A stretch of DNA of 42,684 nucleotides, filler included, from Psammoneis japonica (Eukaryota): assembly GCA_008632985.1 (NCBI GenBank). It is 6 parts of 6 records of this genome, joined end to end, with 100 filler letters (N's around TTAATTAATTAA, not from the genome) between each part and the next. Parts side by side here need not be neighbours in the genome. Positions count along the whole stretch, not along the records: positions 8,094 to 36,991 come from QPGO01000592.1; 5 more parts are not named here. One strand, written 5' to 3'. Of this stretch, positions 5,655 through 26,074 are shown piece by piece; within the stretch, counting starts at the first letter, position 1; every line of letters begins with the position of its first letter. The notes below the pieces were generated by a model. That model ran no database searches, had not been told where the DNA came from, and worked only from the letters and a program-made list of their open reading frames with translations. Made by a program: the position numbers and the translations under genes.

Positions 5655-5855
5655 GGTGCGTGATGGTGCTCTTCTTTTGGAGCGTGCCGCACAGGCAGGT
5701 GCAAAGCCAAACGAGGGTCGAAGCAACTCCCTCCTTGTCAACAGAACAACAAAAAGGTGGTGAAATGATGTGATGTGCTTGTTGCAGCAGTGCTTGTCAC
5801 AGCAGTGCAAGTTGGAGATGGATTTGTGCATGCAGCAGCAGTCGTGTGCACCCAC

Positions 5856-6082
5856 ATGCCATGTCGTGCGGGCACGGCCCCGGGGCACAACAAGCCACAT
5901 CACAAACTGCCATGCGGAGATGAATTTGCACATGTGAGGGGACATGCCTCGCAACGCGCAGTTGCTGTGCTTTCTGTGCTGTTGCAGTCGCGCATGCATG
6001 TCGTGCAGGTGTAGCCCCGGGGCACACCCACACCACAAACTGCCATTCGGAGACGAATTTGCACATGTGCGTGAGGGGGCAC
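5856..6082 (+). repeat. Tandem ~137-bp-period repeat upstream of LRR2, with a third partial copy at 3542-3580
   Basis: gccccggggcaca...cacaaactgccat(g/t)cggaga(t/c)gaatttgcacatgtg starts at 5877 and 6014. ccattcggagatgaatttgcacatgtg is at 3542-3568. Confidence 0.85.
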
Positions 6083-6304
6083 AGCACACATCCATCCTCC
6101 CCCACTCCTTGCTCCTCTGCAACCACAATGGCAGCAACCGCCATTTGCCAACACGCTGTCATCCGCATCAACCCTGATGTCCATCGCTTTGTGTCGGATC
6201 TTGCNNNNNNNNNNNNNNNNNNNNNNNNNNNNNNNNNNNNNNNNNNNNTTAATTAATTAANNNNNNNNNNNNNNNNNNNNNNNNNNNNNNNNNNNNNNNN
6301 NNNN

Positions 6305-7993
6305 ACATTTTGTTTTGATCCCTGTTGTTGTTGTTGTTGGATGATCCTTGATCAGATTGATGCCATGATGCTGTTGGGAATTGAAGCGCAAGAGATGCTG
6401 GCTGACACCAAACAAACATCATTGGACAAGCCATTCCTTTGAGGATTGTCAAGATTCTGCAAGCCTTGGAGGAAGAAACACACATGATTGAAGTGAAATT
6501 GCTGGCAAACTCAACTTGCACACTGGCAAAAGCTCTCAAGTTTGCCAAGGCTGGGGCAAAGACCTGGCATTTGCAGTGCAACCACACCTCATTCCCAAGG
6601 GCATCGTCCCAACTGGAGCACCATTGGCAAACCAGAAGTTCTTGAAGGGCACCGCAAAACAAAGTCAAAAGGACCAGAAGAACATTTTGCAGCAGATCCA
6701 GGTGATCAAGACCATGGGAGAGTTCCTGACAAAATTGGCCAACTCTTTTGCAGGGCTGGAGCAGCAAATCTGAGCCAAGGAGGTGACACAGTGGATCCAT
6801 TGTTGGATTTGCCAATTTCAGATTTGCTGTTCCAAGGTAAAATCCTGGAACCAGTGGGAAAATGCAACTGGATGTTGCAGCAACAAGAAAGTCTCAAAAA
6901 AGATGCCAACAGGCTCAACCATGACACCTTGCTGGTCCAAGTGCATCACAATGGAGTCGGCGGCATGATCCAACTGGCCATCAAGACCACCAGACCCTGG
7001 AAGTTGGCGGTGCTTTTGGAGTGTCATTGCACTGCCAACCCCTGCTTGGGAAACTTCCAGCAGCTCTTTACCTGGTGCAGCTCTCTTTGAGGCAGACATG
7101 GGTGTGTTTGCTGGCACCACCAGGGTGCCAAGTTTTGGCATCCCTGGGCTCCAGTCAGCCCACGTGCACATGTTGCAGGGATGGACCCAACTCTGCAATC
7201 TCAAGCTTGGCAAGCCCATGTCTCAACCAAGTCATTTGCCCATTTGCCAGCTCCAGCATGTGTTGCTGCAGCTGGGCCTGAACTTGCTGCCCATTGTCAC
7301 CTCCTCAGATTCTTTGCAAATTTGCTTCGAGGCATTCCCAGAAGCAGAGCCAGGTCAGGTTTGTGCACCTGGCAAGATTTTCAACAAATGGAGTCATCTG
7401 CTGCAGGGAACAACAGCAGACATGTGCTGCAATGATGTGTTTGTTCACTCGCATCATTTGCCAGTGGTGGAACCGGGCCAAAAGGCCTTTGTCCCATGCA
7501 GCCTGGAGCTGACAATTTTGATTGACTTGTCCACCAAAACTGAACAGGGTGGGGACAGCGACAAATTGGATTCACATCTTGCCTTTTTGGCTGTTGCCCA
7601 CACGGTCAATGTTGTGGCAGAAGAATCATCCTGTGCTGTGTGAGTCAGATTGCAGCTGCCAAAGCTCATGAAAGGCGGTGATGATCCCCAAGCAAAGGTC
7701 ATTCCCTCAAAGATGATTGTGCTGTGGAAGACACAGAAGATTTTGTTGATCCAGACATGGTCTGGTGTCACTTCACATTGTCAATGATGAGATGGCAGTG
7801 ATCCTTCAAATGGTTGCTCCCGATGGTGGCGCTGGCTTGACTGCTTCATTCTCCTGCCGAACTCAGCGGCAAGACAGTGTTGTTGTGTCAAGCAGCAAGG
7901 GCTTTGGTTTCAACAAGGCTCCAGCGGCAAGTGGCCTTTGGGGTGGCCCACCCCTGCCACTGGCGGTGGAGCATTTGGAGATGTCGTTTGGCA
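6305..7993. other. Unidentified degenerate, TpA-depleted sequence (probable TE or pseudogene relic)
   Basis: Only two TA dinucleotides seen (~6838, ~7069). Broken ORFs rich in C/H; no family recognised. Confidence 0.4.
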
Positions 7994-8197
7994 NNNNNNN
8001 NNNNNNNNNNNNNNNNNNNNNNNNNNNNNNNNNNNNNTTAATTAATTAANNNNNNNNNNNNNNNNNNNNNNNNNNNNNNNNNNNNNNNNNNNNCAAAAGA
8101 TGCTCAACAAATTGAGTCATGTCTTGTTTGACCAATTGATCTCATCCACACGTCATGATGAACGTTGGGGACCTCTGCCACCACCGCCACCAGAAGG

Positions 8198-8850
8198 ACC
8201 GTGTCAAGTGCCGCGTCTAGCTCGTCGTAATAAGGAATAATCGAGTTATTTTCCTCTGGGTCCTTTGTTATTAACGATGTTTCCGCTACTGAAGTTGCCT
8301 CCTCATTTGTTTGCGATCTCGTTTGTTGTCGCTCCAGCTTTTTGTCCAGCACTCGCGGCCACGCAAAGAAAGTCAGGAACCCTGCTAGCACTGACATCCA
8401 TACATATTCCGTCTCGCTCGTCCAAAACGGTCGTTTGCATAAAAAGATGGCGTCTCGTATGGTTCCACCACCAACGGCAGTCACCATTCCCACCATGGAG
8501 CATCCAAACACATCGAGTCCCGACTGCGCAGCCGTGACGCTTCCCGTGAGCGCAAACGTCAGGGTTCCCGCATAATCGAGTCCACGAAGGACTCCACCGG
8601 GACTTTTCAAATTTGGAAATCGAGAAAGGGCATCGTCATCACGGCCTCTGACGCGGGGAGCATTGACGAGTGTTGCATCCGTAGGTGTCTCGCATGCTTT
8701 CATATTTCGCCGTGCCGACGCTGTTGGCTGGTGAGTACGATTGTGCAACAATGATGAGCGAACTAGGGTTCGCCTCGTATGAGTCATGTGCCATAAGGAA
8801 TGACGCAAAGCTCTTCGAGGAAGGAGCCTTTGATTTATAAGGAGACTCAT
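8198..8850 (-). CDS. UPF0126/TRIC (YadS/YicG-like) membrane protein, 3' half apparently missing
   Basis: LDYAGTLTFALTGSVTAA...DVFG..MVGMVTAVGGGTIRD......PFW is the UPF0126 repeat. The R/S/L-rich N-terminus from the Met at 8850 resembles a mitochondrial presequence. Homology stops at LDAALDT, where repeat 2 should begin. TpA content is normal. Confidence 0.75.
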
Positions 8851-9279
8851 ACGGTAGCGGATTCGTAGTACTATCACCAAGCTCCAAGCTCCATCCCATG
8901 ATCTGGGATGTTCAATGATGGCCAGGTGTGAGTGTGAGTGTGAGGTCGCTGGCAGCAAACAGCAAGCACGATGTTTTGAAATTTTGCGATCCAAGTTCAT
9001 CCTTTTTTATCCAGCTTCCTTGATATCAATACCGGTGTAAATTAGAGTGTCCTTCTCTAAGATTAAATTTCAGTCTTGTCCCCTTCAACCAAATCCGCCA
9101 CCACTTTCGTCACAACTCACAATCCGCCACCACAAAGAACAAGAGACAAGAGCATAACGATGAATCAATCTGCGACTTTACCGCTGTGTGGGTGCCATTG
9201 ATTTTTCGGTGTAGAAGGTAGATGTGCTGCATCTAGCATCACGGACTCCCAGCTGATGCGCTTTTAGGCCGAAGCCATG

Positions 9280-11270
9280 CTCCAGGCAAAGCATTGTGGG
9301 GTTCTCAACCTCAGGAGTGTGGCTTCGTCAAAAATTGGTCACAACACATGAATTTCTGCTCACGGATTGGAGCCCCTTCACAGTTGTTTGCTTCAAGAGA
9401 TGGATCTGAGACTTGCAGGTGATGGAGTGCTAGAACATCCTTTTGATCTGCTGACAGTGTGATTGTTCAGTCCCTCCTTTGCCACATTCTTGACTTTGTT
9501 TTGTGCCGTTGCTCCCGGCTGTGCGTCAGATCACACGAACTCCTGGGCTCTTTGTTTTGTTTGCAAACTCATCTGGTGCATCAGTGGCATGAGAAACATG
9601 ATGCAGAGGGGTCTTCTGCACTTGCTGGCAGAGGGGAGAACATCAGACATGGTGGTGGACATCAGAGTGGCAGGCACACACAAGTGCAAAGCTGTGCTCA
9701 TTTTGCTCTCCTTTTCTTGTGGTGCTGACATTGGATTGTGCTTGGCAATGAGGCCAACAAGGCAGTGCTGCACATGAATGGCAAAAGCCATGCTCAAAAG
9801 TGTTTTTTGTTCACATGCAAATGAGCATCATGAGACAATGAGGGGGGGGCATGCATTGTGGAACTTCCAGCCTCTCAGATTGGCGCCACAGATGCCCTCT
9901 CAAGCAATGAGAAGATTGTGCTGGTCCATTCCTCTGCAAGTGTCAAATCAAACCAACAGCAACAGATGCCACAGGCTGAGATGTGAGGCATCAAAGCCAC
10001 ACACTCTGATGTCAACTGCAATGGTTGATTGCTTGAGGCAGAGCCAAAACCCAGTTGCAACAAAGTCAGGTTTGGCATCACTTTGCTGACAGAGCTGGCT
10101 GCCAGCCAAGTGTGCTCCCAAGAAGTGAGAGTGGCAAGGCTAGAGGATGGAATGGGTGGCAGCATTGAAGCCACCAGCTGCTGTTGCTTGCTCTTGGCTT
10201 TTGGCTGTTTTTCAAAAGAGAGAAAGAGAGCAAGGAAGCCAGAGCAGAGATGCTCAAAAGCTGCCACAATGGGCTGGAACAGCTTTGCAAGTGAGTGCAA
10301 CAAGGCACATGGGCACGTTCCCAAACTCAAGCTGGGGTGGCAGGGCTTTCCAGCTCCACCCACAGTGCAAAGCAGTCACAGAGAGGGCGTGCATGCTGGG
10401 CAGGTGGCTGGCTCAAAGCTGGAGGGTTGGGACAACACAGGCATCTTTGGGTTTTATCTGGTGGATGTTGGCAGCTGGGGTGGAAGACAAAGTCACCACT
10501 CACAAGCACCTTGGCTGTGGTTGCCAACTTTGCACGTGGCAGGCACAGCCAGGCAGCAGGCGGGGGCACCTGGTGCGCACAAGAACACCCGCACCTTTGT
10601 CTGCTCTGCACTTTGGGTGCAGCAGTGCATGGTTGTGGCAGCTGGTGAGTCATGGCTAAATGTTGCCACCACGTGCCCTCACTGGGCCCCTGGACAATGT
10701 CCCAGCCATCCTTGAGCCAGTGCCATGAAGCTCTGCATTGGTTTGATGCACTCCTTGATGCAGATCCTTTGTGCTGCTGTTGTGGTGTGACAACCTTGAG
10801 ACAACTTCCCATGACCAACAGTGCTGCCTTTGCTGGTGCTCCTCTGGCAGCAAGTGGAGAGGTGGCAGGCTGCTCCAGCCCCTCTCAGCACTGCAGTTAG
10901 CAGCGGCTCTGGTGGCGCGGGGGGTGGTTGCACAGGTTGCGGGGGTTCACTTGCACCATGGGCTCAGGAGGCAGCCAGTGGTGCACGAGGTGGCGGCACA
11001 TCGCTGGGGCCAGGTGAACTCTGTTGGGCTGCCCTCTGCCTGCTGCCAGCTGCTGATGAGCACCACTCATGTTGCATCGGCAGCTTGTTGCTCTTTGCAA
11101 ATGAGACTGCCTCAGCATCAACAAGAGCAGCAGATGGCATCCTTTGCTGCAATGACAGCACATTGGTGAAGCCATCTGCTGTGGCTGTTGCTCTTGGTTG
11201 CTCTTTTCAAAAGAATGTGTGCAGCGCGTTGATGTTGTTTGGGAGGTGAGACTGACCCTTGGAGCGGTTG
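9280..11270. other. Unidentified TpA/CpG-depleted relic
   Basis: Very few TA and many TG/CA. Overlapping C/H/Q-rich ORFs with no recognisable motif. Confidence 0.35.
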
Positions 11271-11617
11271 GAGGGCGGGTCATTTCGACTCGTCAAATTG
11301 CACGATCGAGGTGATGCTCATCGGTCATCGCACGTTAGCGCAAGCAAGCAAGCAAAAACTCGCTGGATGTCATCACGGTCACGAATGCGAAACCGCGAAC
11401 TGCTGCGAAAGAACCTTGGAGGGAGATCAAGCGATTGCACAACAAACAGACAATGGCAATTCGTGTGGTGATGGCGTCCCATGATGGATGCAGTAGCTCT
11501 TTGCTGCACCTCCCGAAGTGGCCTCCCGACCCTCCGCCATGGCCATCCTTCTTTTTGCGGATCCTTTTCCCTGCCGTTCTTGCCTTTGCCATCGTCTCCT
11601 TTCTTCATTCCCTTTCG

Positions 11618-12140
11618 GTCACTCCCTTCGCTCCTTTCGCCTGTACATTTCTACGCCCCTTCTACTGGCCCCCAGTTTCCACGATTGCCAATTGCCCTTC
11701 CAACTGCTCATTCCATTGCCCTTCCACTTTTCTTCACTCCCTTTCTTCATCCCAACAACTGCCCCCTGCCATTTCCCTTTCTGCTCTTCCTCATGCCCTC
11801 TCTCCTTCTCTGCCTTGTTCGTTTCTTTTCCCTGTGGCCCCTCTCTGCCCCCTGACCTCTTCCCCATTTCCTCCTCCAGCAACCCCTTCAATTGCCCCCC
11901 TTCCTCCCATGACTCCCTTCGCGCCTTTAGTTATGACTCCTCTCCTATCGTTCCACATGCCTTTCTACGCCCCTTCGAACACGATTGCTTCCGTACTCCT
12001 CTACAGCTTCCCCTGCCCTTCGGCCCTCTCTACTGCCCCTTTCTCTTCCATGACTCCCTTCGCGCTTCTGCTTGTGCCTTCCTCCCTATGTTTCTATGCA
12101 TCCTCTACGATCATTCGTGTACGATTGCCCACGTCATGCC
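11618..12140 (+). repeat. Degenerate 5' UTR subrepeats of the retrotransposon (3 copies)
   Basis: actcccttcgc...ttcta(c/t)gc...acgattgc recurs starting near 11618, 11909 and 12050. Confidence 0.65.
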
Positions 12141-12247
12141 CTCACCTTCCCTCCTCCTATCTTTCTACACGTTCTGTGACCTTGTCGCTGTTTTTGGCGA
12201 TCCGCACACAACAACGACTCTCTGCAACTTTCTCTTCTCGCTTGATC

Positions 12248-13927
12248 ATGTCTACTCTCGCCTCCGCTCCTCCCGCTGATGTTAAGCTTTTAGCTGAGGT
12301 CCTTCATCCTACTGACCTGCCTGACGTGCCTGCCATTGCTCTCACGTCTGATGTCATTCGTGACATCATTCTTAAGACACCAGAGCATCACACTGGGCGC
12401 GTCTCTCCGCTCCTCCTCACTCTTGGCTCTGTGACGCTTGCCGAAACCAAGAAGTGCTCCCATCCTCACCAGAATCAGTGGGCGTCCTACTTTCACGTCA
12501 CTCTTCACCCGGTGACCCCCGACGGCACCACCTTTTCCTTCGAATCCTTCCGCAGCCAAGCGCTCTCCTTTCTCCTTCAGAAATGGCACCTGCACCCTGC
12601 GTCGCACTTCACCCCCTTCCGCTCCGCTGGCTCCCCTTCCAATTTTCTCCACCCTGACTTCTCTCCGGTTTCGGCTGTGGACAATCCTTGGGCTCGGCAC
12701 TGCACCTTTGTGATCCCGGCCTGCAACTCTTTCAAAGAAAAGGCTCATGGCATCCTTGCTGGCCCCTCTCCAACCCTCTGCGGTTCTTCTCGACGTGCTT
12801 CTGAGTTTCTTCTATCCTGCCTTTATTCCTTCCTTGTTGGCAAGATCTCCAGCACTGCGACCAATCCCATCCTCCAATCCTTCCGAGACCACCCTGCCTT
12901 TCTCAATCTCGTTGGAATTCGTCCTTCGCAATGCCCTGCTAACTCGGCCCAGGCGCGACGCCGCTCTCTTCCGGTTTTTTACATTTCTGCTGCCTCCGAT
13001 GCCGTCTGGAACACCCTGCTTCACATCACCAATCCATCCAATGCGCCGCCTGCCTCCTTCTCCATCCTGGGGACCTCTGCTGCCATCATTCCCTTCCCAG
13101 CCCCGGCCAACTTTGCTTCCACCTACAACGCCCTCTCCAAGCTCATTTCGTGTCAGAGCAACATGAAAGTGGTTGTCTCTGACCGTCTTCTTCTTCCTCT
13201 CACCCAACCTGGCATCAGTCGTCTCCTTGCTGCGACCAATCTTCGCTCCCTCATCCCCATCTTCTCTGCTCATGACTCCCTCCCAATCAAGTGCAAGCTG
13301 CTCTTTTTCCCGTCTCCGTGCACAATTGCTCTTGTGGATGCCAACCCACACAACTGTCCCGGCTTTCCCTTGGATCTCCTCACCTCTGTGGTAGAATCTG
13401 CTCATGACGACAGCACGACTTCCCCATCCCACGCCTCTGCTGCTCTTCAGCCGCCCGCTCCCTCTCAAGATTCTTTCTCGTGTCATGCCCTTGAGCTGCT
13501 TGCTCAAGACTGGCAGCTCCCCAAGCCCCAAGATCCGCTCCCTGCTGCCACATCTCCTTCCTCCCATCCTCCCCAAGCCCGCTCCCTCACCACCGAGCCT
13601 CCTCCCTCCAAACGTCCCCACTCTTCTCCCGATGCTCTCTCTCCGCCCCCCGCTGTTCCCACCGTAGTTTTGCAGACTTCTCCGCCCCCCACCGCTCCCG
13701 ATGCAATTGTGCAGACCAAATCTGATGACTCGGTTTCTCCCCAACAGTCCCAGCGCGAGATGGAACTCTTGGATGTCCTTGATGCCTTCGCAGGTGCTTG
13801 CTGCCCGGCCCGCCTTTCTACCTGGCAACCTTTCTACGAAGAAGCCATCCGGGCTGCAGCCCCTGATGTCGACTCCCTCCGCGATCTCATCGCCTCGTGG
13901 AACCCACCGAAGCCCGTGCCCCGCTGA
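12248..13927 (+). CDS. Retrotransposon ORF1 (function unknown; P/S-rich linker near the C-terminus)
   Basis: Part of the 11435-13927 open frame. Complex, protein-like sequence begins at MSTLASAPP (ATG 12248); the upstream part translates the UTR repeats. Confidence 0.65.
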   Translation: MSTLASAPPADVKLLAEVLHPTDLPDVPAIALTSDVIRDIILKTPEHHTGRVSPLLLTLGSVTLAETKKCSHPHQNQWASYFHVTLHPVTPDGTTFSFESFRSQALSFLLQKWHLHPASHFTPFRSAGSPSNFLHPDFSPVSAVDNPWARHCTFVIPACNSFKEKAHGILAGPSPTLCGSSRRASEFLLSCLYSFLVGKISSTATNPILQSFRDHPAFLNLVGIRPSQCPANSAQARRRSLPVFYISAASDAVWNTLLHITNPSNAPPASFSILGTSAAIIPFPAPANFASTYNALSKLISCQSNMKVVVSDRLLLPLTQPGISRLLAATNLRSLIPIFSAHDSLPIKCKLLFFPSPCTIALVDANPHNCPGFPLDLLTSVVESAHDDSTTSPSHASAALQPPAPSQDSFSCHALELLAQDWQLPKPQDPLPAATSPSSHPPQARSLTTEPPPSKRPHSSPDALSPPPAVPTVVLQTSPPPTAPDAIVQTKSDDSVSPQQSQREMELLDVLDAFAGACCPARLSTWQPFYEEAIRAAAPDVDSLRDLIASWNPPKPVPR

Positions 13928-16900
13928 CTTGCCCCTTCTGCTCCTGGTCCCCTCCTTCCATTGATGCATCATCCCTTCCTGCTTCTGTGCACAGCCATCT
14001 TCGCCAGGAGCATCCCCGCCTCTCGCTTTCTCATGTGCCTGCATCCTTCTTCGACACCGCTGGTTCACATGTCTGCAGGCATTGCAATCACAGCCAATGC
14101 ACCCACCTGTCTACCACCCACCTTCGCAATCACTTGCAGAACAAGCACTTCGCTCCTCGCTCTTCCCTTGACACTGACATTGTTCTCTCGTCCTTCCACA
14201 ATCTAGGTGACTGGGGCCCCTCGCTACAATGGCTCCATGCTCTTGCACTCGAGCCTCCGCCTTTCCGTGCTTCCTGCCGCCGCAAGCTCTCGTCCTCCGC
14301 CCGCAAGGAACTCCACTCTGCTCGTCATCATGTGACAAGCTGGGTGCTGGCCGCCTCCCAGCCTCTCTCTGACCCCTCCCACCTCATTCCTACGTGGCAA
14401 CGTGACTCCACTCCCTTCTGGAAGCTGCTCTTACTCTTTGAAGCTCTCATTCTTGCTCCTGTCCCGCCACGCTCCAAGTTTGGCCCTGCCATTGCCTTCC
14501 GCTTGTCCCTCTTCCGCCGTGGCTGCATTCGCCAACTCTGCCACGAAGCCTGCTCCCATGCGCCACGCCTCTCCTCATCTTCCCCCGACTTTTCTGCTTC
14601 CACCTGTTGCTGCTCCGCTCAAGTTTGTGCCGACGAAGATGACTTTCACTCGGCCCACTCCAAGCTCACCTCTGCGCTTCCTGTTGCTGCCGTTGCTCCT
14701 GAGCGCCTTCCTGCCATCCTCAAGCTCTACCCTCCTCGCCTGCACCCCTCCGACCTGCCTAATCCTCCTTCAACTCGCTCGGCCTCCTCCCTTCATAATG
14801 AGCCTGTTGAGCTCTCCTCCGATGCTCTTCTTTCCGCTCTCTCCAAATGTAAGCCTGGGACTGCTGCCGGTGTCTTTGCTGATTCTACCGACCTTTTCAA
14901 GTCCCACGCCCTCTATTCTGCCAAAACCCCAACAGGTGTTGCTCAACGACCCTGCTTGTCATCCTTTCGTGAGCTTGTCCTTCTTCTACTCCATGGCTCC
15001 ATTCCTTCCTCCGTCCATTCCTCATTTGCTTCGAACTGCTTTGTCGCTCTGCACAAAGATGCCAGCGACCTCAACAAGCTTCGCCCCATTGGCGTCGGCA
15101 CTGCTCTTCGTCGCATTGCCGGCTCCGTCGTCATGACTCTCTTTGGTTCTGCATTTACCGAATGCCTCCTCCCAGATGGCCAATTTGGCATTGGTGTCAA
15201 AGGTGGCCTCGATTGTCTCATTCACTCTGCTCTTGCCAACATTGAACGACATCTTTCTTCTGCCGACTCCACCAAGGCTCTTCTTCTTCTTGACCTCGTC
15301 AACATGTTCAACGAAGCATCTCGAGATGCCTGTCGACACGTTCTCACCTCCACCCCTGCCTTCCATCCTCTGCTTCCTTTTTTTGACCTTCTACATCAAA
15401 GTTCCAATGCATGTTGGCATCGCCGACCCGATTCTTCCTGGGGCTCCTTTCTTCAAGAAGAGGGATTTGCCCAAGGATGCCCTCTCGGCCCTGTCTTCGC
15501 CAGCCTGGTCCTCTCTCTGGTTCTTCGTCCGATTAACCAAGAGCTTCAAGAACGTATCCCTGGCCATTCCTCTGTCTCAGTTGGCTCCTGCATTGACGAT
15601 GCTCACGCTTTCCTTCCCCATTCCGCACTCCCATGGTTCCTTGAACGCTTCTCCGCCCTCGGTGCCCCCTGCGGAATCTCCCTCAACCTCCGTAAAACCA
15701 AGATCCTCACCTCCATTGCCGGTGTTAGCCCCATCCCTGCTCTTCCCCCTTCCCGCGCCGATTCTCTCCGTGCTGCACTTTCCTTCTTAAACCCTGCCAA
15801 TGACCCCTCTTGCAACCCCGAACTCACCTCTGGTGTTCGCTTCCTTGGACAGCCCCTCGGCTCCCACGACTTCGCCACCTCTTTCCTTTCCGACACTTCC
15901 TCTACTCTCTCCAACAAAGTTGACATGCTTCTCACCCGTCTCCATGACAAACAAACCCAGGCTCAACTCTTCAAGCACTGTTTTGTTCCATCCTCTGCTC
16001 ACCTCCTTGGAGCTGACTTCTGCTGCAACTTCGACCCCGACAATCCTCCTGACCCCTTTCTCTGGACCTCTCCGTTTCAAGATTTCCTCCTCACCGTTGC
16101 TCACCGCTTTCTACACTGCGTCACTTCCTTCGCCGCTCCTTTTCCCGACCACTCCATTGCCATCGCCTTCCTTCCTGCCTCCTTGGGCGGGTTTGGTCTC
16201 CGGGACCCAACAGCTGCCGCCATTCCTTCCTTCTTGGTGTCGCTTCTCCGCTCGTTCCGCTTTGCTTCGCACGGTGTCAGCCTGCCATCTGGCGCTTCTG
16301 TTTCCCTTCCGCGCTGCTTTCGGCTCTCCCTGTCTTCCTGGTCCAACCCTCGCTCTTCCCTGCGACTCTGTGCGCTCTTCCGCCGTTGTGCTCCCGTTCT
16401 GGCTTCCGCCTCTACCCTTTCCTCTTCTTCCTTGGCCACCCTGGTTAAATCGGCCACTCTCCCCGGCCTGGCCCGTCGTCTCTACCATGAACATCAGCAA
16501 CAAGCAGTGACCTCCATCCTTGCTAACTCATCTTACGACGTGCAATCTTCACTCCCTTCATTGCTGTCTCCGCTTACAAGCCTCCCTCTTCATTCCTTCT
16601 CTCGTCGCTTTCCAAGCTCCCGCCTTTCTTCGGATGCCTGCGCTGTTGCCGCCCTTCGCAAGCTTCGTCTCCCCATCCTTCCTCCGTCCCTTGTCAACAC
16701 TCCCTGTCCCTGTGGCCATGCCATTCTGGATGCCCATGGTGATCATGCCTTTTCTTGCCGCCGTGCTCACAAGTCCAAGCTTTCCAATGGTCTCCGTGAC
16801 GCTGTTTTCATCCCAGCCCAAACTTTGGGTCCTCTTGCAGAGTTCTGTCGATCCCCCAATGACGTTCATCTTGAACCCACCAACCTGCTCCCCACCCGCC

Positions 16901-17628
16901 CGCTTCTCCATCCCGCCGATGTCGGCATTTCAATCCCCCCTCCCGCCTCCCTTTCTGCTCCCTCCCGCCATCACTGCATTGCAGTGGACGTCACCGTCCC
17001 TCAAGCTTCCTCTCGCCCTCCTCCAGGTCTGCCTGCTCCCTCTTCTCCTATCTTAACTGAGGCACACCACTCGAGCGCGAGATTGAAGTTTCTTGGCCCC
17101 TCTGCTTCCTCTGCCGATGGATCCCTTGTTGTTTCTTCGCTTGGCAACAATGGCATCTTTCTGCTCCCCTTCACTGTAGATCACCTTGGTGGTCTCGGCT
17201 GCTTTGCCCACCGCTTGCTCTTTGGTTCTACATCCCCCTCCGTCTGCTCTCAGCCCAAGCCACCCTGGTCCTCTTCCTCTGACCTTCGTCACTCCGATGC
17301 CTCCTACTCCGCCTTCCTCTACGCTTTGTCATCTCCGTCTGCAATCCTTCCCTCTGCTGACTCCGCATGGCGTCGCCTGTCCGCCGATCGCTTTGGAAAC
17401 ACCTACCGTACAGCCACCCCATCCCAGTGGGCCACCCAAACTCTTGGCTACAACGTTGTTCTTCACCTTTCTACGCACATCCTCCGATTCACCTCAACTC
17501 TCCCTGCCCCCTCCTCACCCATACCTTCCACAAAACGCCCTTCGTCTTGCGTCCATCGACCCTTTTACTCTACCGTCTCTACAGCTACCTCCGTGCCTCC
17601 CTCTGCTGTTACCTTCCGCTCTACATAG
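13897..17628 (+). CDS. Retrotransposon ORF2: two C2H2 zinc fingers, reverse transcriptase, zinc knuckle and restriction-like endonuclease
   Basis: Zinc fingers CPFC..H...H and CRHC..H...H. RT motifs LRPIGVG, QFGIG, LLDLVNMFN, GFAQGCPLGP, CIDD, LNLRKTK and FLGQPLG. Knuckle CPCG...DAHGDHAFSC. RLE motifs PADV, AVDVTV and FTVDHLGGLG. Confidence 0.92.
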   Translation: MEPTEARAPLTCPFCSWSPPSIDASSLPASVHSHLRQEHPRLSLSHVPASFFDTAGSHVCRHCNHSQCTHLSTTHLRNHLQNKHFAPRSSLDTDIVLSSFHNLGDWGPSLQWLHALALEPPPFRASCRRKLSSSARKELHSARHHVTSWVLAASQPLSDPSHLIPTWQRDSTPFWKLLLLFEALILAPVPPRSKFGPAIAFRLSLFRRGCIRQLCHEACSHAPRLSSSSPDFSASTCCCSAQVCADEDDFHSAHSKLTSALPVAAVAPERLPAILKLYPPRLHPSDLPNPPSTRSASSLHNEPVELSSDALLSALSKCKPGTAAGVFADSTDLFKSHALYSAKTPTGVAQRPCLSSFRELVLLLLHGSIPSSVHSSFASNCFVALHKDASDLNKLRPIGVGTALRRIAGSVVMTLFGSAFTECLLPDGQFGIGVKGGLDCLIHSALANIERHLSSADSTKALLLLDLVNMFNEASRDACRHVLTSTPAFHPLLPFFDLLHQSSNACWHRRPDSSWGSFLQEEGFAQGCPLGPVFASLVLSLVLRPINQELQERIPGHSSVSVGSCIDDAHAFLPHSALPWFLERFSALGAPCGISLNLRKTKILTSIAGVSPIPALPPSRADSLRAALSFLNPANDPSCNPELTSGVRFLGQPLGSHDFATSFLSDTSSTLSNKVDMLLTRLHDKQTQAQLFKHCFVPSSAHLLGADFCCNFDPDNPPDPFLWTSPFQDFLLTVAHRFLHCVTSFAAPFPDHSIAIAFLPASLGGFGLRDPTAAAIPSFLVSLLRSFRFASHGVSLPSGASVSLPRCFRLSLSSWSNPRSSLRLCALFRRCAPVLASASTLSSSSLATLVKSATLPGLARRLYHEHQQQAVTSILANSSYDVQSSLPSLLSPLTSLPLHSFSRRFPSSRLSSDACAVAALRKLRLPILPPSLVNTPCPCGHAILDAHGDHAFSCRRAHKSKLSNGLRDAVFIPAQTLGPLAEFCRSPNDVHLEPTNLLPTRPLLHPADVGISIPPPASLSAPSRHHCIAVDVTVPQASSRPPPGLPAPSSPILTEAHHSSARLKFLGPSASSADGSLVVSSLGNNGIFLLPFTVDHLGGLGCFAHRLLFGSTSPSVCSQPKPPWSSSSDLRHSDASYSAFLYALSSPSAILPSADSAWRRLSADRFGNTYRTATPSQWATQTLGYNVVLHLSTHILRFTSTLPAPSSPIPSTKRPSSCVHRPFYSTVSTATSVPPSAVTFRST

Positions 17629-17678
17629 GCTTCCTTAATCTTCTATTTTAAAGAAATAACCACTCCCAGCGAAATAAC

Positions 17679-17742
17679 GAACCGCGAACTGCAACGAAAC
17701 AACGATCGAACCGCGAACTGCTGCGAAACGGAACCGCGAACT
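17679..17742 (+). repeat. Three copies of GAACCGCGAACT at the element's 3' flank
   Basis: Copies at 17679-17690, 17708-17719 and 17731-17742. Confidence 0.9.
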
Positions 17743-18018
17743 ATAACTCCTGAGAAGACACTGATCACGCAAAGTGGCATGTTTTCTTGCACACTGCACT
17801 CACAGCCAAAGAACATGATAAATAAAGTGGCATTAGTCAAGCATTCTTTTCCAGCTTTACCTGCACTCGTTATGTACCAGAACACAAGTGTAGTATCGCT
17901 GGCAAGTCCCCAGAGATGAAACCAAATTGTAGAACTTTGGCAATGTTCTACAAAACCGTTCTCAGCTTGGTTTCAAAACTCTCTCATAAAATTCAAAGCG
18001 TGAAACGCACGAGACAAG

Positions 18019-19120
18019 ATGAAAACGATTTGCAGTTGCCTCCTAGTCCTTTCCACTCTGCTTTGGATTGGAGCTGAGCGCGCTGACGCGAACGAAGTGC
18101 CTACGTGTGGTGAACCATCATACAACAAGCGAAAGGACAGGGCTGTTTTCCTTTGGAGGAAGTGTTTTTTCCGATCAGTGGCACTTGGAAGCGGCTGGTG
18201 GGAGACAGCCTGTGGCAGTCAATGCCAGCCTGGTGGCGGATACATCCGACATTGCGATCAGCAAGAAGGCCGTTGGGATCGAGTTGAACAAGGACTTCAT
18301 CATCAATGTCCCGAGAAAGAAAAAGGATGGATTCAATTTCCTTGTCAAAAACGACGGAAGTGGATGTTTAACCATCAAGTCGCCGGAAGACATCCCCCTT
18401 TATGTTGGTAAGAACCGCATGGAGTTCTCTAAGTCCATCAGTGTCCCGGGCCTCAAGCCGTGCGATGGACCACTGCTCGAATACCGCTTCGACAGTTCAA
18501 GCACCCTTTACAAAGACTCAGGAATGAACGGATGGGATGGCGCGACAGCAGGTAGTAGAGGCAGGATTTCGTACAACAGTTTAGGTTACTCGAGATATGG
18601 CGCCTACCTTGATGGAAGGGATGATCACATGACAATCTCAGAGTCGAAAGATTTGAACATGAAGAAGTACACTTTCATGGCATGGGTTCGGTACTCTGAT
18701 AATTCCAGACCCGACGACAGTAATTATGCTCTTATCCAGAAAACCGGAGCTCTTTGGTTCGGCATTCACAAGGAATTTCATACACTCAGGGCGGGGGGCA
18801 AATTTGGTGGCTGCACCAAGAACGACAATTTCCAGTTGAAAGGTATCAACCCTATTCCAACTGAGACGTGGACCCACGTTGCTGTAACCAATGACCAAAA
18901 TACAATGAAGGTTTATATCAACGGAGAGTTGGACGTAGAGGGAGACATCACGAGCCCCGGAGACTATTGTAAAAATGAGGCGCCCTTTAACGTAGGCTCC
19001 GAATTAGGAGAGACCCGGGCATCAGATAGGCACTTCCTTAGAGGATACATGGATACGGTTCGCATCTATGACAAGGATCTCCCTCAGGATGAAATTCGTG
19101 CCGAAATGCATCGCCATTAG
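18019..19120 (+). CDS. Secreted LamG/concanavalin-A-like (LamG3) protein, with one frameshift in the T6 run at 18165-18170
   Basis: Signal peptide MKTICSCLLVLSTLLWIGA. Removing one T joins LWRKCF to SDQWHL. LamG motifs LDGRDDH, YTFMAWVR, WTHVAVT, KVYINGEL and GYMDTVRIYD. Normal TpA and Tyr. Confidence 0.8.
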
Positions 19121-19734
19121 GTTTTGGAGGTATCCATGTTACAAACGACGGATCAAATTTAGTATGTACCATGTAAAGTTAAATGCTGTTACAGTCACCT
19201 GATATTTTAAGTCTCTGAAATGACAACGAGGTCTTGCGCAAAGGTGGCATGGACCAAATTGCGAGCTCACATTTTTGTGGCCAAATGCCATGGCGAGCGT
19301 CTGTGAGAACTAGTGGCGGTATACGGCTTATGACGGCAGACGAGCCGGATACGGATAACTACCACAGCAAAATTGAATTTTGTGCCTTTGACGGTCTTGG
19401 TGTCGCAAGTGGCAGAACATCATATTGATCATTATTAGAAGAACCGCAGAAAAATTAAGACCGAGGACAAATTGATCAAAGTATGGTGACATATCCATGG
19501 CTACTTTGTCGACATTGCCCGAAACTTTCTGCAAAATGCCAGTGATCTCGAAGTCATGAACCGTAGCAATCGTCGTTTGAAGAGCATAGCTGCGTTGGGA
19601 AGTTTGTTGTGGTTGGCCGTGGAATACTCAACGGAAAGCTTGCATTGTTACACAGGTTTCGCATAGTAAAGGAACCATCCACCTGTAAAGTTCAAACGGC
19701 ATACTCCTCGAAGAGAGCTCCAGCATACCCTTCT

Positions 19735-20806
19735 TCAGCAAGTTTGATGGGCAACTAGGGGCTCGGCATAACGGGATACGAGCTGGAATCGGGAGATGTG
19801 TTCATATCCTTCACCGTTCACATTCTCCACTTTCCAAGAACAAGTGCGTACACCAAAAATTAGACCGGTGCCCTTGTTTAATACTTGCATTGATACCATC
19901 TTTGTGATGGAGGAAGTGTCAACCTGGCTCACGGTATGCTTAACTTGTTTCATGGCAATATCTGGTTGGAATAGATAACGCATACTACTACCCATAAGCA
20001 ATTGGTTTGCTACCACAATCTCTTGGTCGACCCCAATGGCAAAGCCGGTTCCGAATGCTTCTTGCTTCTTCCTCCGTGAGAGCTGGAAACGTGTAGCATC
20101 TGCGACGACCGATAATGACAGCATCTTCAATATTCTTGACGTACAGACTTGACAACGCAGCCATGAGAATGGTGGCGTTACATTTCTCAAGATTGAGCGG
20201 TAGCGAGCAACCATCCATGATGATTGGACCAGTGGTCGGCATGTACTCCTTGAGGTGGTTCTTGGAATCCTTTTTGGTATGATAGAGAAGTATTTTTCCT
20301 TTTCCAAAACGACCCCTTAGACCACAAGGCCATATGCCAGAAAGGTCGATTTTCCAAGACCACAAGGACCGTGCAGTGCAAACAGCTGCTTCTCATTCTC
20401 GGTGTCTGAGTGCAAAACGTCTTTTGCCTTCTGCATGGCATCCTCGTGATGCTGACGGGCGCATGCCTCCTTCACCAATCCAAAGACTTCCCCGACATCC
20501 GTCAGATAAAAGGAAATGTCCGACTGTGCGGCCTTGCGAGAGCATCTTCCAGAAACGAGAGTGGCGCCGAACAGTCCTCATGCAGCGGTGCCTTCTTTGC
20601 TTGTTTTTGTGCTCTTTCTTTTTCAGCAAGGTTACAATCTTCACAATTTGTCTCCACTTCTTGCGTTGTTGGAATCGACACTGAACGAGATAGGCTAACA
20701 TTAACATTGTTGTCCCGTTCTTTCTTCTTGCTGTTGAAGTGTCGTTGACGCCGCTGTGAACTGCAACTGTTGCTGTTGCGTCGCGTGTGAACTCGACAGT
20801 GTACAC
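19735..20806 (-). other. Possible fragmented or spliced coding region of unknown function
   Basis: Three overlapping minus-strand ORFs (20393-20806, 19988-20365, 19735-20307) with largely normal TpA. No motif recognised. Confidence 0.25.
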
Positions 20807-20997: not shown

Positions 20998-21120
20998 AAG
21001 CACACGAGGCTACTGCTGATTTGACCTCTGCCGCCAACTGTAACCTGCAACCATCAGCCTCACACTGGCAATGGGCAACAGTGGAGGAGGCATAGAGGCA
21101 AGAGAAAGATGTGAGCATCG
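20998..21120 (+). repeat. Diverged copy of the sequence directly upstream of the METTL13-like gene (23340-23468)
   Basis: aagcacacgag(g/t)ctactgctgatttgac(c/a)tctgc is at 20998 and 23340. ggcaagagaaag follows ~100 nt later in both copies. Confidence 0.8.
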
Positions 21121-22990
21121 GTTTTCCCTTTTCAGCCCTGCCAACACAGGGGGTCACATGTGCACAGACATTCACCAACACTGCAAAACAGGTCATGTGC
21201 CCCAATGCTCTTTCCCGCTGCAGCTTCCCTTGTGCCCCTCTGTGGATCATGCACCCACTCACCTCATCTCCAGCTTTGAAGTGCAGCTGTTTTTTCACTA
21301 GTGTCATCAAGCTTTCTGGAGCCAAAGTCGCACCTGCTCCAGGACTGACATCCCCGCAACAACGCCTGCGCTGAAACTCTCGTCGTTGGGTGTCACACAC
21401 CCAAAGCTCCCACCCATTTTTTCAGCCAACATCAGCAATCAGTGGCAAAATGCAACTTTCCACCCATGTGTGTGACACACCTTGGAGATTCCCTTGGGAT
21501 TCCAGAAGGCATGTCCGTTTTGTGATGATGCAGGCCATGTGCAACATTTCTGAAGGCATGTCCTTTGTGACGATGCAACAAAGCAACCATCTCTCAGCCA
21601 TGAAACATGCGGGATCAAGCACACACAAAACTCCTTGCCATCTCTCATGGGGGCATGCACCCAAAGCTCCCTTTCTTGCTTTTCATTGCCAGCTGTGAAA
21701 TGCAACTTTCCCTCTGTTGGCATCAAAGATGATGGGCCAAAGATCTCCTTTTGGCTTTGACAGCATGCTCGACCACTTCTTTGGCTGTGTGGTTTCTCAA
21801 CAAATCATGCACCCAAAGCTCCCAAGCACACTTCCCAGTGCAACCGCATTGGTCACACACACCTTGAGGTGCAACTTGCCATCCACATTTCATCAAGTCA
21901 GACTCATGTGGGAAAAAGTCTGGCTCTCGACAAGTCAGAAATCTTGCCAATGCACTGTTGACGAGTTTTGCAGCAGTGTTCATTGCATGGACGGGATGCA
22001 GATTTGGCATTTCTGTGGAAGATAAATTGCCCATGGTTGGTTTGCCGGTGTGATGGGTGAAGTCAAGTGACCTGCTGCTGTGCAGATGAATTTCCAATTT
22101 GTGTGCACATGATGACCTTGCATGCGGACACGACTGAAGTTCATGCATCACAACTGGCGGAACACGTGCATCAAAAAAGAAAAGCACAAAAAATCGAAAT
22201 CGCAACTCGCGACCCATTTGTGCACCAACAACCCACAACAAATCCAGAGCTGGAGACTCAGTTAAACAGCATTCTGCATCAACAACAGCAAGCAAAGACA
22301 AAATGAATTGGCACAAGAAAGTGGTTGGTTGTCGCGTGCACAACAGGAGCATGGTGGATTGTTTGTGGTGCGGTTGCAATTTCCATTCGAGCACTCACTC
22401 TTTCATTGTTCTCTTGCTGAGCAATGGCACTGTGCACGTGTTGGAGTGTGGTCCGAGCGGTGCAGCTGGACGTTGCATGCCAGATGGTCCACCCAATCAT
22501 CAATGCAGTGATTCATGGGGTCATGAGCCATGTTGTGGTGTTCACCACTGTTGCAATGCCTGTGTTGGTGCCATCAACCATTGGGCGTTCATGGAGAGCA
22601 ACTTCCATGGACGAGACTGCAGCTGTTTGCATTGAAACTGCAAACTCTTTGTTTGGGACTTAGTCAATGAATGTTGGCAGCACAAAGTGGGTGGTTCGAT
22701 GGCCACAATCTCCCGTAAGATCCGAGACAATGGCTGGACCATTGGCCCAGAGACAGATTGCACAACACGGACGAGCATCATCTGAGTCATGCCTGTTGAT
22801 GTGGTTTCTGAAGAACAGAAGGAAAATGGTTTGACAGGAATAAAAACAGCATTTCTTAGCAGCATTTTCTCCATCGTTTAGGTGGCACAAAGTGCAAGCC
22901 AATGCTCGTCCTTTTCGTCGTCAAGTTGATGTGCTGCCCCACCCCTCTTCGAGCTGCATTGGCCACTTTGCTCTGCACCAACGACTCAGA
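21120..22990 (-). pseudogene. TpA-depleted degenerate ORF relic of unknown family
   Basis: Minus-strand fragments rich in C/H (e.g. FLTCREPDFFPHESDLMKCGWQ...CAWELWVHDLLRNHT) look protein-like when C/H are read as Y. Confidence 0.35.
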
Positions 22991-22996
22991 TTAGAA

Positions 22997-23320
22997 GCTC
23001 TCTCTCTCTCTCTTTCTCTGCTCTAGAGCTACTCTCCCAGCAGCTAGAGAGTGGAGAGGCCATTCTCAGCACATGCCATGCGTGCTCTAGCTGGAGCAGA
23101 GCTCTGCTGCCAGCTGGCCAGAGCACACAGCCCTCTCTCTAGCCAGGAGAGAGACCAGCCACTCTGTTCTACTGCTGCTCTCTCTCTCTCTCTACTAGTA
23201 GAGAGTAGAGAGACAGCAATAGCTACTCTCTAGTGGCTCTCTAGAGTAGAGAGGCCTCTACTCTCTAGAGCTAGCACCGGCAGTAGAGGGAGCTAGGGCC
23301 CCAGCGAGCGAGCTAGCATG
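22997..23320. repeat. (CT)n/CTAG-rich low-complexity palindromic island
   Basis: (CT)n runs, many CTAG/CTCTAGAG, and a perfect 18-bp palindrome ctctctactagtagagag at 23188-23205. Confidence 0.85.
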
Positions 23321-23472
23321 GCTCTCAGGGTGCGCACAGAAGCACACGAGTCTACTGCTGATTTGACATCTGCAACGAACCAGAACCCAGAACAGCGAGC
23401 CAATGGCGAGCCAACGAAATCAATACGGTAACAAAGAGCAGAGAGGGCAAGAGAAAGTTATGGGCATTGACC

Positions 23473-25114
23473 ATGACAAGCAGGGCGTCAGAAAAGAAAA
23501 ATCAAGACAGTACTACGAACGATGCAACTATTGAATTGAATGTGGAACCTCCGATTCGAGTGCATGATTTCAAAGTCTTTGACACGTCCAGATTTGACAT
23601 CTTTCATTTGCATGTCGACAGTGATGAACCAAGAACCAAACAAAACTTTCGGTACAGACTAACTGTGTTGGATCGAATGCCAACGGGACCAAGAGTCGAT
23701 TTTATTACAGCAGTCTTTATTATACCAGCAGGACGAGAGACTGAATACATTTTTTCCACTCGTCATGGCTTGGAATCGATTGCCTCGAGTGCGCACTGCA
23801 TTCGACTCATCGCGGTTGCGCTCGGACGTCCGCCTCATGTCTTTGAACAAGAAGAACAGATTCGACAAGAACTGGCCAATGTCGCTCAAATCTTAAATCA
23901 AGGAGCAACTTTTCTTACGTCATCCATGAAGTCGATGTACATGACTCGAACAAACACAATCATTCCTTTTGTCGCGTTGAACGGTATTGGCTCTCGACAT
24001 GTCTTGGCTGAGGGTGAAACTAAATTGTCGGGAAAACCTAGCAGAAAACACCCAACACGTTCGACGACTTTACTTTATGGATAATCCCTTTGTGATTCAG
24101 TCCGAAGTCGTGGTGAAAGTTCACGAGGGCAAAAAGAAGGTAACCGTAGACAAGACTTTTGTGGCTTTTGCCTACCACAAGGACATGGTGGCTGGGATTC
24201 TAGCCTTCTCGCCCGTCTTAACGACAAGTGAGAAACACCAGTCGGGTCTTGTTATTGGGCTAGGTGGTGCTGGACTGGTTAATTTTCTGCAGCAACTCTT
24301 GCCCGCTGTGCTACTCACAATTGTGGAAGTGGATGAATCCATAGTGACGGTTGCAGAACAATACTTTGGCTTTACAGCAGACCACGACGGGACAGTCGTT
24401 CGAATAGGGAATGGTTTGGATGTACAGCCGACTCCTCCACAAGGAGCCGATGCGGCAACGCCGTCAATAGACGAGCAAAACAAGGACAATATCAATATTC
24501 CTCCTGGGAGCCAAAGTTTTATTGTTGTGGATGTGGACTCCAAAGACAGATCGGCAGGCATGTCCTGTCCACCGGGTGCCTTTGTCGAGGAATCCTATCT
24601 TCACACACTCAAGTCCTTGTTGGATCCACAAGATGGTCTCTTGGCCATTAATGTGTCGGCGCGCAATAGGGACTTGTTTGACGAGGTTTTGACACGAGCT
24701 CAAGCCGTCTTTGAGCATGTCACGCTATCACGGCGGGTACAAGACGACAAGTCAAACGACCAACATGATGATGACGATGCGGATATTAACATTGTTGCCT
24801 TTTGCAAAGCAAACGACTTTGGTGACTGTCTGTTTGCCAAGACCACCAAGTCTAAAACCGCCTTTGTGGACAATGTTCACGAGGCGCTCATGTCTACAGC
24901 TCACAGCAGCACCCACGAAAAGGGTGCCCCAAAGGAAAAGCTGTCGGCGTCATGGTTGGAACTGGAAGAATGTGTTTCGGGACTGTCCGCGTTGGTACTG
25001 GACGAAAAGAAGAAATCTGGGTCCCCATCCAGAAAGAAAAAGAGCAGCGGCAAAAGAAGAAAGGAAAGAAACGGTAATTCTGATACAAAGCATGTTGCTA
25101 CAGATACGACGTAA
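23473..25114 (+). CDS. METTL13-like: METTL13 (eEF1A-KNMT)-like methyltransferase: central and C-terminal spermidine-synthase-like domains; frameshift at ~24033-24037
   Basis: AVFIIPAGRETEYIFST, VRRLYF...VIQSE, VIGLGGAGL, DVDSKD...GMSCPP..FV and GLLAINV match METTL13. The two ORFs join with a +1 shift at SGK|LAE. Confidence 0.82.
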
Positions 25115-25161
25115 TCATTTGAAGAATAGCACAATGTATAGCACTTTTTCTCTCGTTTGAC

Positions 25162-26074
25162 TCAGCCTAGTGGGTTTGCTGGTGATCCACCGTTGCCGGA
25201 TAGCGATCCGTTTCCAAAGATGGCATAGAGAATCACTCCCACCAAGAGCAAGACATTAATCACAGCAAAGCATTGGATAAACTTATCAGAAGCCATGCGC
25301 TTCCCAAAATGCTTAATAAGTTTGTCCGCACGTTGCAAATTGTCTTCGATCCGATCCACTTCAGCATCAACCCTTTCAATCGTCTGCCGTTGTCGTTCCA
25401 ATTCTTCCAAAGTCGATACACCCACTTCCTTTGACTCTGCCACAAGCCGTTTGGTATTGTCTAGAGATTGTTGTGTCTTATCTTGCAAGGCCTTTGCTTC
25501 GTTCAACATGACGTCTCCCTTTTTCACATCATCCATCTCACCGTTATCAGCCGCAGCACCCGACGCGGCTCCGACAAACAGTTCTCCGCGTTGACTCTCC
25601 GAACGCATGGCTCGCATGTCGGTTACTGCCGCCTTTAATTCTTCATCCAGCTTCTTCAATCGACTCTCGAATTTTTTTCGTTGATTGGGATCGCTCACCA
25701 AACGAGCCTCCATTTTGAAGGAACGCTTCGTTCCCTGCGCCTTGCGAATGTTCTTTTCGGCTTGAGAAATCAGAGACGAGCGTTCTGCGCCCTGAGCATC
25801 CGCAGCCTCGTCGAGTAAGCTATGAATTTCGTCAATCTCATCGCGTAACGTGTCTTCCCAATACTGAATGTCAGCCTAACATAAGAATCAGAAAATTGAG
25901 CCCAAAAACATACCAGAACAGATGAGTTTTACGTAGAGCGCAGTACAATTTCTACGCAGAAGCAGGTGCGATGACCAACCACGAGATATGGCGGTTGTAA
26001 CTTCCATAAAGAACGAAGCAACCACAAGTCGTAATCAACAGTACATTTCTCGTTCGTATAATCGTCCTTACCAT
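25162..26074 (-). CDS. Qb-SNARE (NPSN/Vti1-like), two exons, ~238 aa
   Basis: Exon 1 is the ATG alone (26074-26072), followed by a GTAAG donor. The intron (26071-25876) ends TTAG. Exon 2 (25875-25162) is in frame: ADIQYWED...SNARE motif (LEELERQRQTI)...RMASDKFIQC and a C-terminal TM helix. Confidence 0.88.

Follow-up and report, generated by a model that had tools for sequence, protein, structure and literature searches.

Repeat-induced point mutation (RIP) of fungi is a mutational defence in which transitions in a fixed dinucleotide context degrade repeated or foreign DNA; it turns CpA/TpG into TpA and creates stop codons. The editing of animal retroelements by ADAR and APOBEC works on RNA or on a single cDNA strand. 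Among retrotransposons, classical R2 elements have a single open reading frame (ORF). Here, we describe a non-long-terminal-repeat (non-LTR) retrotransposon, or long interspersed nuclear element (LINE), of R2-like layout at positions 11301-17652 of a DNA stretch of 42,684 nucleotides, filler included, from Psammoneis japonica (GenBank assembly GCA_008632985.1). This whole stretch is called the window below. The best explanation of the data, to which we assign a probability of roughly three in four, is a young copy of the element eroded by TpA-targeted mutation of repeated or foreign DNA.

The closest described process, and the one match of a full-text literature search, is the TpA hypermutation that affects viral DNA integrated in the genome of Bigelowiella natans, a marine alga (Mettrop et al., bioRxiv 10.64898/2026.01.13.699255). 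According to the main text of this preprint, 231 of 302 nuclear mutations in mutation-accumulation lines fell in integrated nucleocytoplasmic large DNA virus (NCLDV) and virophage regions; 230 of these 231 were A>G or T>C, all at TpA, and the viral regions mutated at about 1000 times the background rate of the genome. TpA-depleted coding sequences were enriched in reverse transcriptase (RT), endonuclease-RT and DDE domains. As the agent, the authors suggest an ADAT2-like DNA adenine deaminase; in their Discussion they name RIP as an analogy. The terms CpG, retrotransposon, tyrosine and stop codon have no occurrence in the main text of the preprint (bioRxiv 10.64898/2026.01.13.699255).

The window resembles the B. 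natans case, as far as the main text describes it, in the change of TpA to TpG or CpA on both strands, the sparing of host genes, the RT/DDE-type targets and the presence of small scaffolds that are wholly depleted. It differs in that the B. natans process was measured on NCLDV and virophage insertions, with no retrotransposon family analysed in that text, whereas the target here is a high-copy LINE; the depleted blocks here also lose CpG, and the consequences for the protein (Tyr>Cys/His, no stop codons) are made explicit. The process is already described in the 2026 preprint, and what is new here is the kind of target, the co-decay of CpG and the tyrosine read-out. Compared with RIP the direction is opposite: TpA is destroyed, no stops arise and GC content here is about 0.48 rather than falling. 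The RIP signature (TpA excess with a CpA/TpG deficit) was not found in the element or in the depleted blocks, where the reverse was seen. ADAR and APOBEC editing shares with this case the damage to mobile elements by deaminase-type transitions next to preferred neighbour bases, but here both strands and non-retroelement sequences are affected.

A mutational defence that destroys TpA would be very unusual: it counters the common GC>AT bias, mirrors fungal RIP and leaves frames open, and hypermutated mobile elements therefore pass as 'intact' in ORF-based annotation. The present case contributes the signature in individual copies of a high-copy LINE family, links the loss of TpA to a subsequent loss of CpG within the same blocks, and provides a protein-level read-out, Cys or His at conserved Tyr positions, which flags affected relatives in metagenomes too. 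The many dated copies offer a tractable test bed for the rate, context and targeting rule.

Tyrosine loss and TpA depletion in the retrotransposon

The element consists of the following parts, with residues (aa) counted along the respective protein.

11301-17652, + strand: whole copy; the 5' boundary is uncertain, between 11201 and 11507, and the 3' end lies at about 17652
11435-13927, + strand: ORF1 frame, listed at 830 codons, with a conserved core at aa 297-649 (nucleotides 12323-13381)
13897-17628, + strand: ORF2, 1243 codons, no internal stop
13930-14148, + strand: zinc-finger-like region, N-terminal Cys/His (CPFC...H...H and CRHC...H...H), read from the translation
15070-15852, + strand: RT domain, aa 392-652 (Pfam RVT_1, E 9.1e-08, 32.5 bits against a cutoff of 29.6)
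15589-15603, + strand: RT motif C, C-I-D-D-A, for which relatives have Y/F-x-D-D-T
16705-17088, + strand: CCHC knuckle and predicted PD-(D/E)xK restriction-like endonuclease, aa 937-1064, from alignment and model

The first-pass annotation of this DNA had described an ORF of 1243 codons free of stops and frameshifts, with CIDD in place of YIDD in the RT, only four tyrosines in the first 1130 residues or so, and CpG still common, unlike in 6305-7993, where both CpG and TpA were said to be lost. These features were all recovered, the CIDD codons starting at 15589 rather than 15588. ORF2 is collinear with 31 related proteins (711-1369 aa, 31-44% identity, E 1.9e-154 to 2.1e-62) from the N-terminal zinc-finger region to the C-terminus, and hence carries no frameshift. 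An open frame of 1243 codons was reached in none of 2000 first-order Markov simulations (mean 273, maximum 672). In ORF2 the observed/expected ratio (o/e) was 0.29 for TpA (n = 45) and 0.77 for CpG (n = 194), with 1.41 for TG and 1.21 for CA in the element; in 6305-7993 the ratios were 0.02 for TpA (two occurrences) and 0.19 for CpG (20 occurrences). Tyrosine accounts for nine of the 1243 residues (0.7%; four in the first 1130), compared with 1.6-4.0% in the 31 relatives, and Cys (3.2%) and Ser (15.2%) are both raised.

The loss of tyrosine falls on conserved positions. Requiring Tyr in at least 50% of the 31 relatives gave 16 columns, and requiring at least 60% gave ten. At the 16 majority-Tyr columns this copy has Tyr three times, Cys four times (residues 215, 353, 381 and 565), His six times (337, 452, 500, 508, 575 and 947) and Phe three times; ten of the 13 changed columns are now Cys or His. 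Eight of the ten columns at the stricter threshold were altered, compared with 55 of the 360 remaining conserved columns (Fisher p 1.6e-5). At column 500, His stands in place of a Tyr that 29 of the 31 relatives share.

Motif C is encoded by TGC-ATT-GAC-GAT at 15589-15600. Its first column is Y in 18 relatives, F in eight, I in three, L in one and a different residue in one, and Cys in none; the conserved Thr after the two aspartates is Ala in this copy. Both TGC (from TAC) and GAT-GCT (from GAT-ACT) lie one TpA>TpG step from the family majority.

Enumeration of each TpA in each codon context showed that TpA>TpG/CpA makes no sense codon a stop and can erase TAA and TAG; its outcomes include Y>C and Y>H. 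Changes of the RIP type (CAA>TAA, CAG>TAG, TGG>TAG) and of CpG decay do yield stops in the same enumeration. Frames can remain open despite mutation because TpA>TpG/CpA cannot create stops.

In the explanation that we prefer, a regional process acting on repeated or foreign DNA would turn TpA into TpG or CpA (A:T>G:C, either strand) while leaving ordinary genes alone, and a slower loss of CpG to TpG/CpA would then follow in the same blocks. Frames would be kept open while Tyr codons (TAY) become Cys (TGY) or His (CAY); an A in the first codon position after a T would also be altered, giving Thr>Ala, Asn>Asp, Ile>Val and Met>Val. The agent may be a DNA-level adenine deamination, as proposed for B. 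natans, and the CpG loss may stem from methylation of the same targets. A process on duplex DNA would fit, as both strands are affected (four Cys, six His). Judged from sequence, this copy would have lost most of its family-conserved tyrosines through TpA>TpG/CpA, the RT motif-C aromatic included, and the resulting missense load may cripple the ORF2 protein.

Sister copies and the spectrum of differences

Contigs of sequencing run X1 (n = 1264) were aligned with the window for comparison with sister copies. At least 99% likeness was found for 328 of the 1264. Summed contig depth was about 60-100 in the 5' flank and about 560 from bin 11301-11567 and over ORF1, climbed to about 6300 near the 3' end of the element and was 163 after 17708; 12 contigs branch into A-rich sequence behind 17652. 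The copy is young, and the family is abundant and 5'-truncated. Only seven ORF2 positions, amounting to six events, differ from every other contig.

The window and the contigs differ at 288 variable places, 40 of which are listed, namely the places at which the window stands apart from every contig of a run. The listed rows inside the element number 32 and represent 27 events, as follows.

8 of 27 events: window TG or CA, others TA
3 of 27 events: window CA, others TG (ancestor TA or CG, ambiguous)
4 of 27 events: window TG/CA, others CG
2 of 27 events: window CG, others TG or CT
8 of 27 events: other transitions
1 of 27 events: transversion
1 of 27 events: complex

The reverse case, TA in the window with TG/CA in the others, was seen in none of the 27. 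Among C>T rows, seven of 12 lay at CA (17% expected, p 0.0015), and all four G>A rows lay at TG (41% expected, p 0.028). Three of the six ORF2 events produce histidine codons, as follows.

14314-14316, + strand: His140 codon, CAC; TAC in 11 of 11 other contigs
14905-14907, + strand: His337 codon, CAC; TAC in 14 of 14 other contigs; column majority Tyr in relatives
16735-16737, + strand: His947 codon, CAT; TAT in 10 of 10 other contigs; column majority Tyr in relatives

Since all three are TAC or TAT in the sisters, these TpA>CpA changes were gained by this copy alone.

The copy-specific TpA-type changes were also sorted by strand. Four TG (A>G on the + strand) and one CA lie in 11506-12015, and three CA (T>C on the + strand) lie in 14314-16735, within ORF2. 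This clustering would fit a deaminase acting along one strand at a time, with the reservation that the events are few and that the 5' rows come from one contig.

The first-pass annotation had predicted that this copy would differ from the others almost only by TA>TG/CA. Carried out on the sister contigs, this comparison went against the prediction, with eight of the 27 events of that type, three more ambiguous, and all four transitions present among the differences at a share of at least 25%. Its word 'silenced' is an inference: apart from the motif-C aromatic, every invariant catalytic residue is intact. Other parts of its interpretation are borne out: the copy is young (328 of 1264 contigs, seven private ORF2 positions), the process is targeted in that TpA loss is regional and the spectrum was measured in the B. 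natans lines as their preprint's main text reports, TpA loss runs ahead of CpG loss (22 against two of 75 intervals; see below), and no stop codons are made, as the codon enumeration shows.

Several points weigh against erosion by a TpA-targeted process. CpG-type events (six of 27) are almost as numerous as TpA-type events. At a share of at least 25% the differences comprise 57 A>G, 64 C>T, 42 G>A, 55 T>C and 50 transversions; the four transitions thus occur in similar numbers and do not form a one-way TpA spectrum. Position 15590, in the altered motif-C codon, is not among the positions where all other contigs differ (40 listed of 288), so that some other contig either has the same G there or differs at a share below 25%; CIDD is probably carried by other copies too, and may sit on many copies that multiplied regardless. 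Run X1 is possibly the sample from which the window was assembled. Only 18 of 122 substituted majority columns fit one TpA step, a low share that is to be expected because the relatives are so distant. The closest relatives (42-45% identity) have TpA o/e of 0.44-0.62 and the same C- and T-rich strand, so that the strand skew as a whole and some of the TpA shortage are family traits and not recent damage. The identity with the B. natans process would be one of signature only.

An avoidance of TpA and Tyr at the level of the family is the alternative that survives best, and one that we regard as doubtful. A master lineage would have lost most of its TpA, CIDD included, and would still retrotranspose with a functional, not silenced, ORF, whether through tolerance of the changes or through an escape from the host process by the shedding of targets. 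Of the 13 Tyr columns or codons that have changed, only three are seen to be private, and position 15590 does not figure among the listed rows in which all others differ. Abundance also speaks for it, 328 of the 1264 contigs being alike to at least 99%, although inactive copies can be mobilised in trans, so that abundance is no proof of a working protein. RT motif A, the motif-C aspartates, the CCHC knuckle and the nuclease invariants are intact, and this copy agrees with the family at 307 of 370 conserved columns. The first position of motif C is itself variable (I in three, L in one and one other among the 31 relatives), but Cys occurs there in no relative, and Tyr500, present in 29 of 31, is His here. 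The tyrosines that sisters keep at 140, 337 and 947 imply that erosion goes on after copying.

The TpA and CpG mosaic of the window

The blocks of the form N44-TTAATTAATTAA-N44 in the window are six-frame-stop linkers between separate contigs. The window is a chain of such contigs, and adjacency across linkers is therefore meaningless; 6305-7993, being flanked by linkers, is a small contig of its own.

2125-2224, 4308-4407, 6205-6304, 7994-8093 and 36992-37091: linkers
1-2124, 2225-4307, 4408-6204, 6305-7993, 8094-36991 and 37092 to the end: contigs

Dinucleotide o/e was calculated per 1-kb step for the mosaic, and the relation between TpA and CpG was taken over 75 intervals of 500 bp. The resulting blocks, and the host genes recognised in those with normal TpA, were the following.

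8001-9000, 17001-20000 and 23001-26000: host-gene blocks, TpA o/e 0.5-0.77, CpG 0.73-1.16
1-8000, 10001-11000, 21001-23000, 27001-37000 and 39001-41000: repeat or unannotated blocks, TpA o/e 0.01-0.18, CpG 0.05-0.68, CA/TG 1.3-2.6
8107-9006: Gly_transporter, host gene, block with normal TpA
18047-19117: LamG, host gene, block with normal TpA
25165-25875: V-SNARE, host gene, block with normal TpA

The TpA depletion is regional, spares ordinary genes and is not a genome-wide drift. TpA o/e correlates with CpG o/e (Spearman 0.71) and inversely with CA/TG (Spearman -0.84). Low TpA with normal CpG was found in 22 of the 75 intervals, the element included, and the reverse in only two; from this asymmetry TpA loss is ahead, and CpG loss trails it.

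The mosaic bears on editing of RNA or cDNA at the time of retrotransposition, in which an ADAR-like A>I change on the transcript would be fixed at integration and chromosomal DNA would not be mutated. The element does move via RNA, its private changes could date from its own retrotransposition, and ADARs usually favour a U before the edited A (Discussion of bioRxiv 10.64898/2026.01.13.699255). However, the two strands are about equally affected at Tyr codons (four Cys, six His), the same depletion is present, and stronger, in blocks without an RT (2236-3444, 4408-6137 and 27001-37000), and the B. natans mutations, according to the preprint's main text, arose in integrated single-copy viral DNA in culture. 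We consider this alternative improbable.

A genome-wide shortage of TpA combined with drift or codon bias, the open frame being a by-product of an A-poor strand, is the least credible alternative and is already contradicted: TpA is below expectation throughout the window (highest o/e anywhere 0.77) and A-poor, TpA-poor sequence has few stops in six frames, but the mosaic is sharp within one scaffold (0.5-0.77 against 0.01-0.13), 1243 codons were reached in 0 of 2000 simulations, the loss singles out conserved Tyr (p 1.6e-5) and sisters retain TpA at sites altered in this copy.

Two small contigs carry ORFs with leucine-rich repeats (LRR; LRR_14, E about 5e-29) at 2236-3444 (+ strand) and 4408-6137 (- strand). 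TpA o/e is 0.05-0.18 across these contigs, and a multi-copy, host-like LRR gene family seems to be affected by the same TpA process. A block of about 10 kb (27001-37000), on the same scaffold as normal host genes, has TpA o/e of 0.01-0.10, CpG of 0.20-0.44 and CA/TG of 1.4-1.9; Pfam gave no match for the ORFs tested within it. The segment 40100-41000 is purine-rich (AT skew +0.53), with direct repeats spaced about 355 and 479 nucleotides apart and a TpA o/e of 0.03, and shows no relation to the LINE by blastn or tblastn. TpA is normal (0.57-0.76) over the last 1.7 kb of the window (41001-42684), where no gene was recognised.

Layout, relatives and insertion site of the element

The element is a young, high-copy, 5'-truncation-prone non-LTR (LINE) retrotransposon of R2-like layout: ORF1 is followed by ORF2 with N-terminal zinc fingers, RT, CCHC knuckle and restriction-like endonuclease. 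It shares with the R2 superfamily the LINE-type RT, the C-terminal CCHC and PD-(D/E)xK nuclease, the N-terminal zinc-finger-like motifs and the lack of an apurinic/apyrimidinic (AP)-type endonuclease detectable by Pfam, RVT_1 being the sole match in the 1243 residues at E up to 0.1. It differs in having a separate long ORF1 with a conserved core of its own. ORF1 gave no Pfam match; tblastn with ORF1 against 80 related loci found matches upstream of the RT ORF in L007, L008 and L009 (24% identity, E 1.6e-16 to 3.4e-16), and two ORFs are assigned to the element because the ORF1 core is kept at this place in those three loci. No Pfam call was obtained for the zinc-finger-like region at 13930-14148; its CxxC and H columns are present in the family consensus.

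Queried with a single sequence, the PDB yielded E values of about 0.4-0.7 only, and a profile search was required. The profile of 18 relatives matched LINE-1 ORF2p (E 4.1e-08) and R2 proteins (E 4.5e-06) in the RT region only, so that sequence similarity to solved R2 proteins is confined to the RT. In the 18-sequence alignment D466, D567, D568, C937, C939, H950, C954, K959, E993, D1031 and K1064 are invariant and D1008 is nearly so. An AlphaFold2 model of aa 880-1110 (predicted local distance difference test score 77.9) was submitted to Foldseek; ranks 1-7 were all R2 retrotransposon proteins, with weak E values (2.6e-03 at best, to 7.4e-02; probability 0.66-0.99), followed by PD-(D/E)xK nucleases.

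The ORF2 frame is open from 13867. The codon at 13897 is GTG, with which the Met of relatives aligns; it follows a C, no ATG lies near the ORF2 start, and the earliest in-frame ATG is at nucleotide 15133 (codon 423 of the stop-to-stop frame). Destruction of a start codon at 13897 by the TpA process was considered and rejected, as the preceding base C allows no single TpA step. The end of ORF1 is overlapped by the ORF2 frame over 61 nucleotides (13867-13927) in the -1 frame. ORF2 may be translated by frameshifting or reinitiation, or its start may have been lost.

The + strand of ORF2 contains 14% A and 17% G, and the other two forward frames have nine and 39 stops; stops are few in every frame because the strand is poor in A and TpA. 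A C- and T-rich skew spans 11001-18000. Damage as the origin of this skew was rejected, since the closest relatives have the same; in each of the 30 loci examined the coding strand was G-poor and C-rich (G 0.11-0.19). About 280 codons at the start of the ORF1 frame (11435-12280) are of low complexity (Ser/Pro/Leu/Phe), with 141-nucleotide direct repeats (11883-11953, 12024-12094), and are probably 5' untranslated region or promoter repeats rather than coding.

When the window was compared with itself, neither the element nor its proteins turned up a second time. A short-protein search around motif C gave 14 matches, all at most 53% identical, and the full-length search gave none above 44%, from which the family of this genome is absent from the protein collection searched. 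An exact-pattern scan around motif C in viral_contigs returned 0 matches.

Over the 80 related loci, whole-locus TpA o/e has a median of 0.69, with four below 0.35. The metagenome locus L018 (260-3574) has a TpA o/e of 0.07 over the matched ORF and a CpG o/e of 1.0; no Tyr occurs in its 1104 translated residues, and Cys or His stands at 13 of the 16 family Tyr columns. L032 and L039 contain 0.4-0.7% Tyr. The same erosion therefore reaches further LINEs of this group in environmental DNA. The TpA loss in L018 is extreme and is accompanied by no CpG loss at all.

More broadly, and tentatively, TpA>TpG/CpA hypermutation could be a general RIP-like, stop-free defence against retrotransposons and repeats, beyond integrated viruses. 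CpG decay would follow in the same domains, which hints either at methylation of the targets as well or at a single deaminase for both A and C. It could be active in several uncultured marine eukaryotes, as the metagenomic LINE relatives include one without tyrosine in 1104 residues, and a LINE lineage might shed TpA, catalytic box included, as an escape.

Short repeats flank the element.

11391-11410, + strand: upstream copy of the flank repeat, 20 nucleotides, AACCGCGAACTGC... unit
17680-17728, + strand: downstream copies of the same AACCGCGAACTGC... unit

The downstream stretch of AACCGCGAACTGC-type short repeat extends over 17680-17745. The 13-mer AACCGCGAACTGC has three copies in the window, at 11391, 17680 and 17709, and the element has copies on either side; three matches were obtained in 0 of 100 shuffles. 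One run X1 contig lacks the element and connects 11414 with 17770 through 25 other letters; the joint's shorter side measures only 24 nucleotides. The flanking repeats and this joint hint at an empty site or a paralogous array, and at a specific target for the element.

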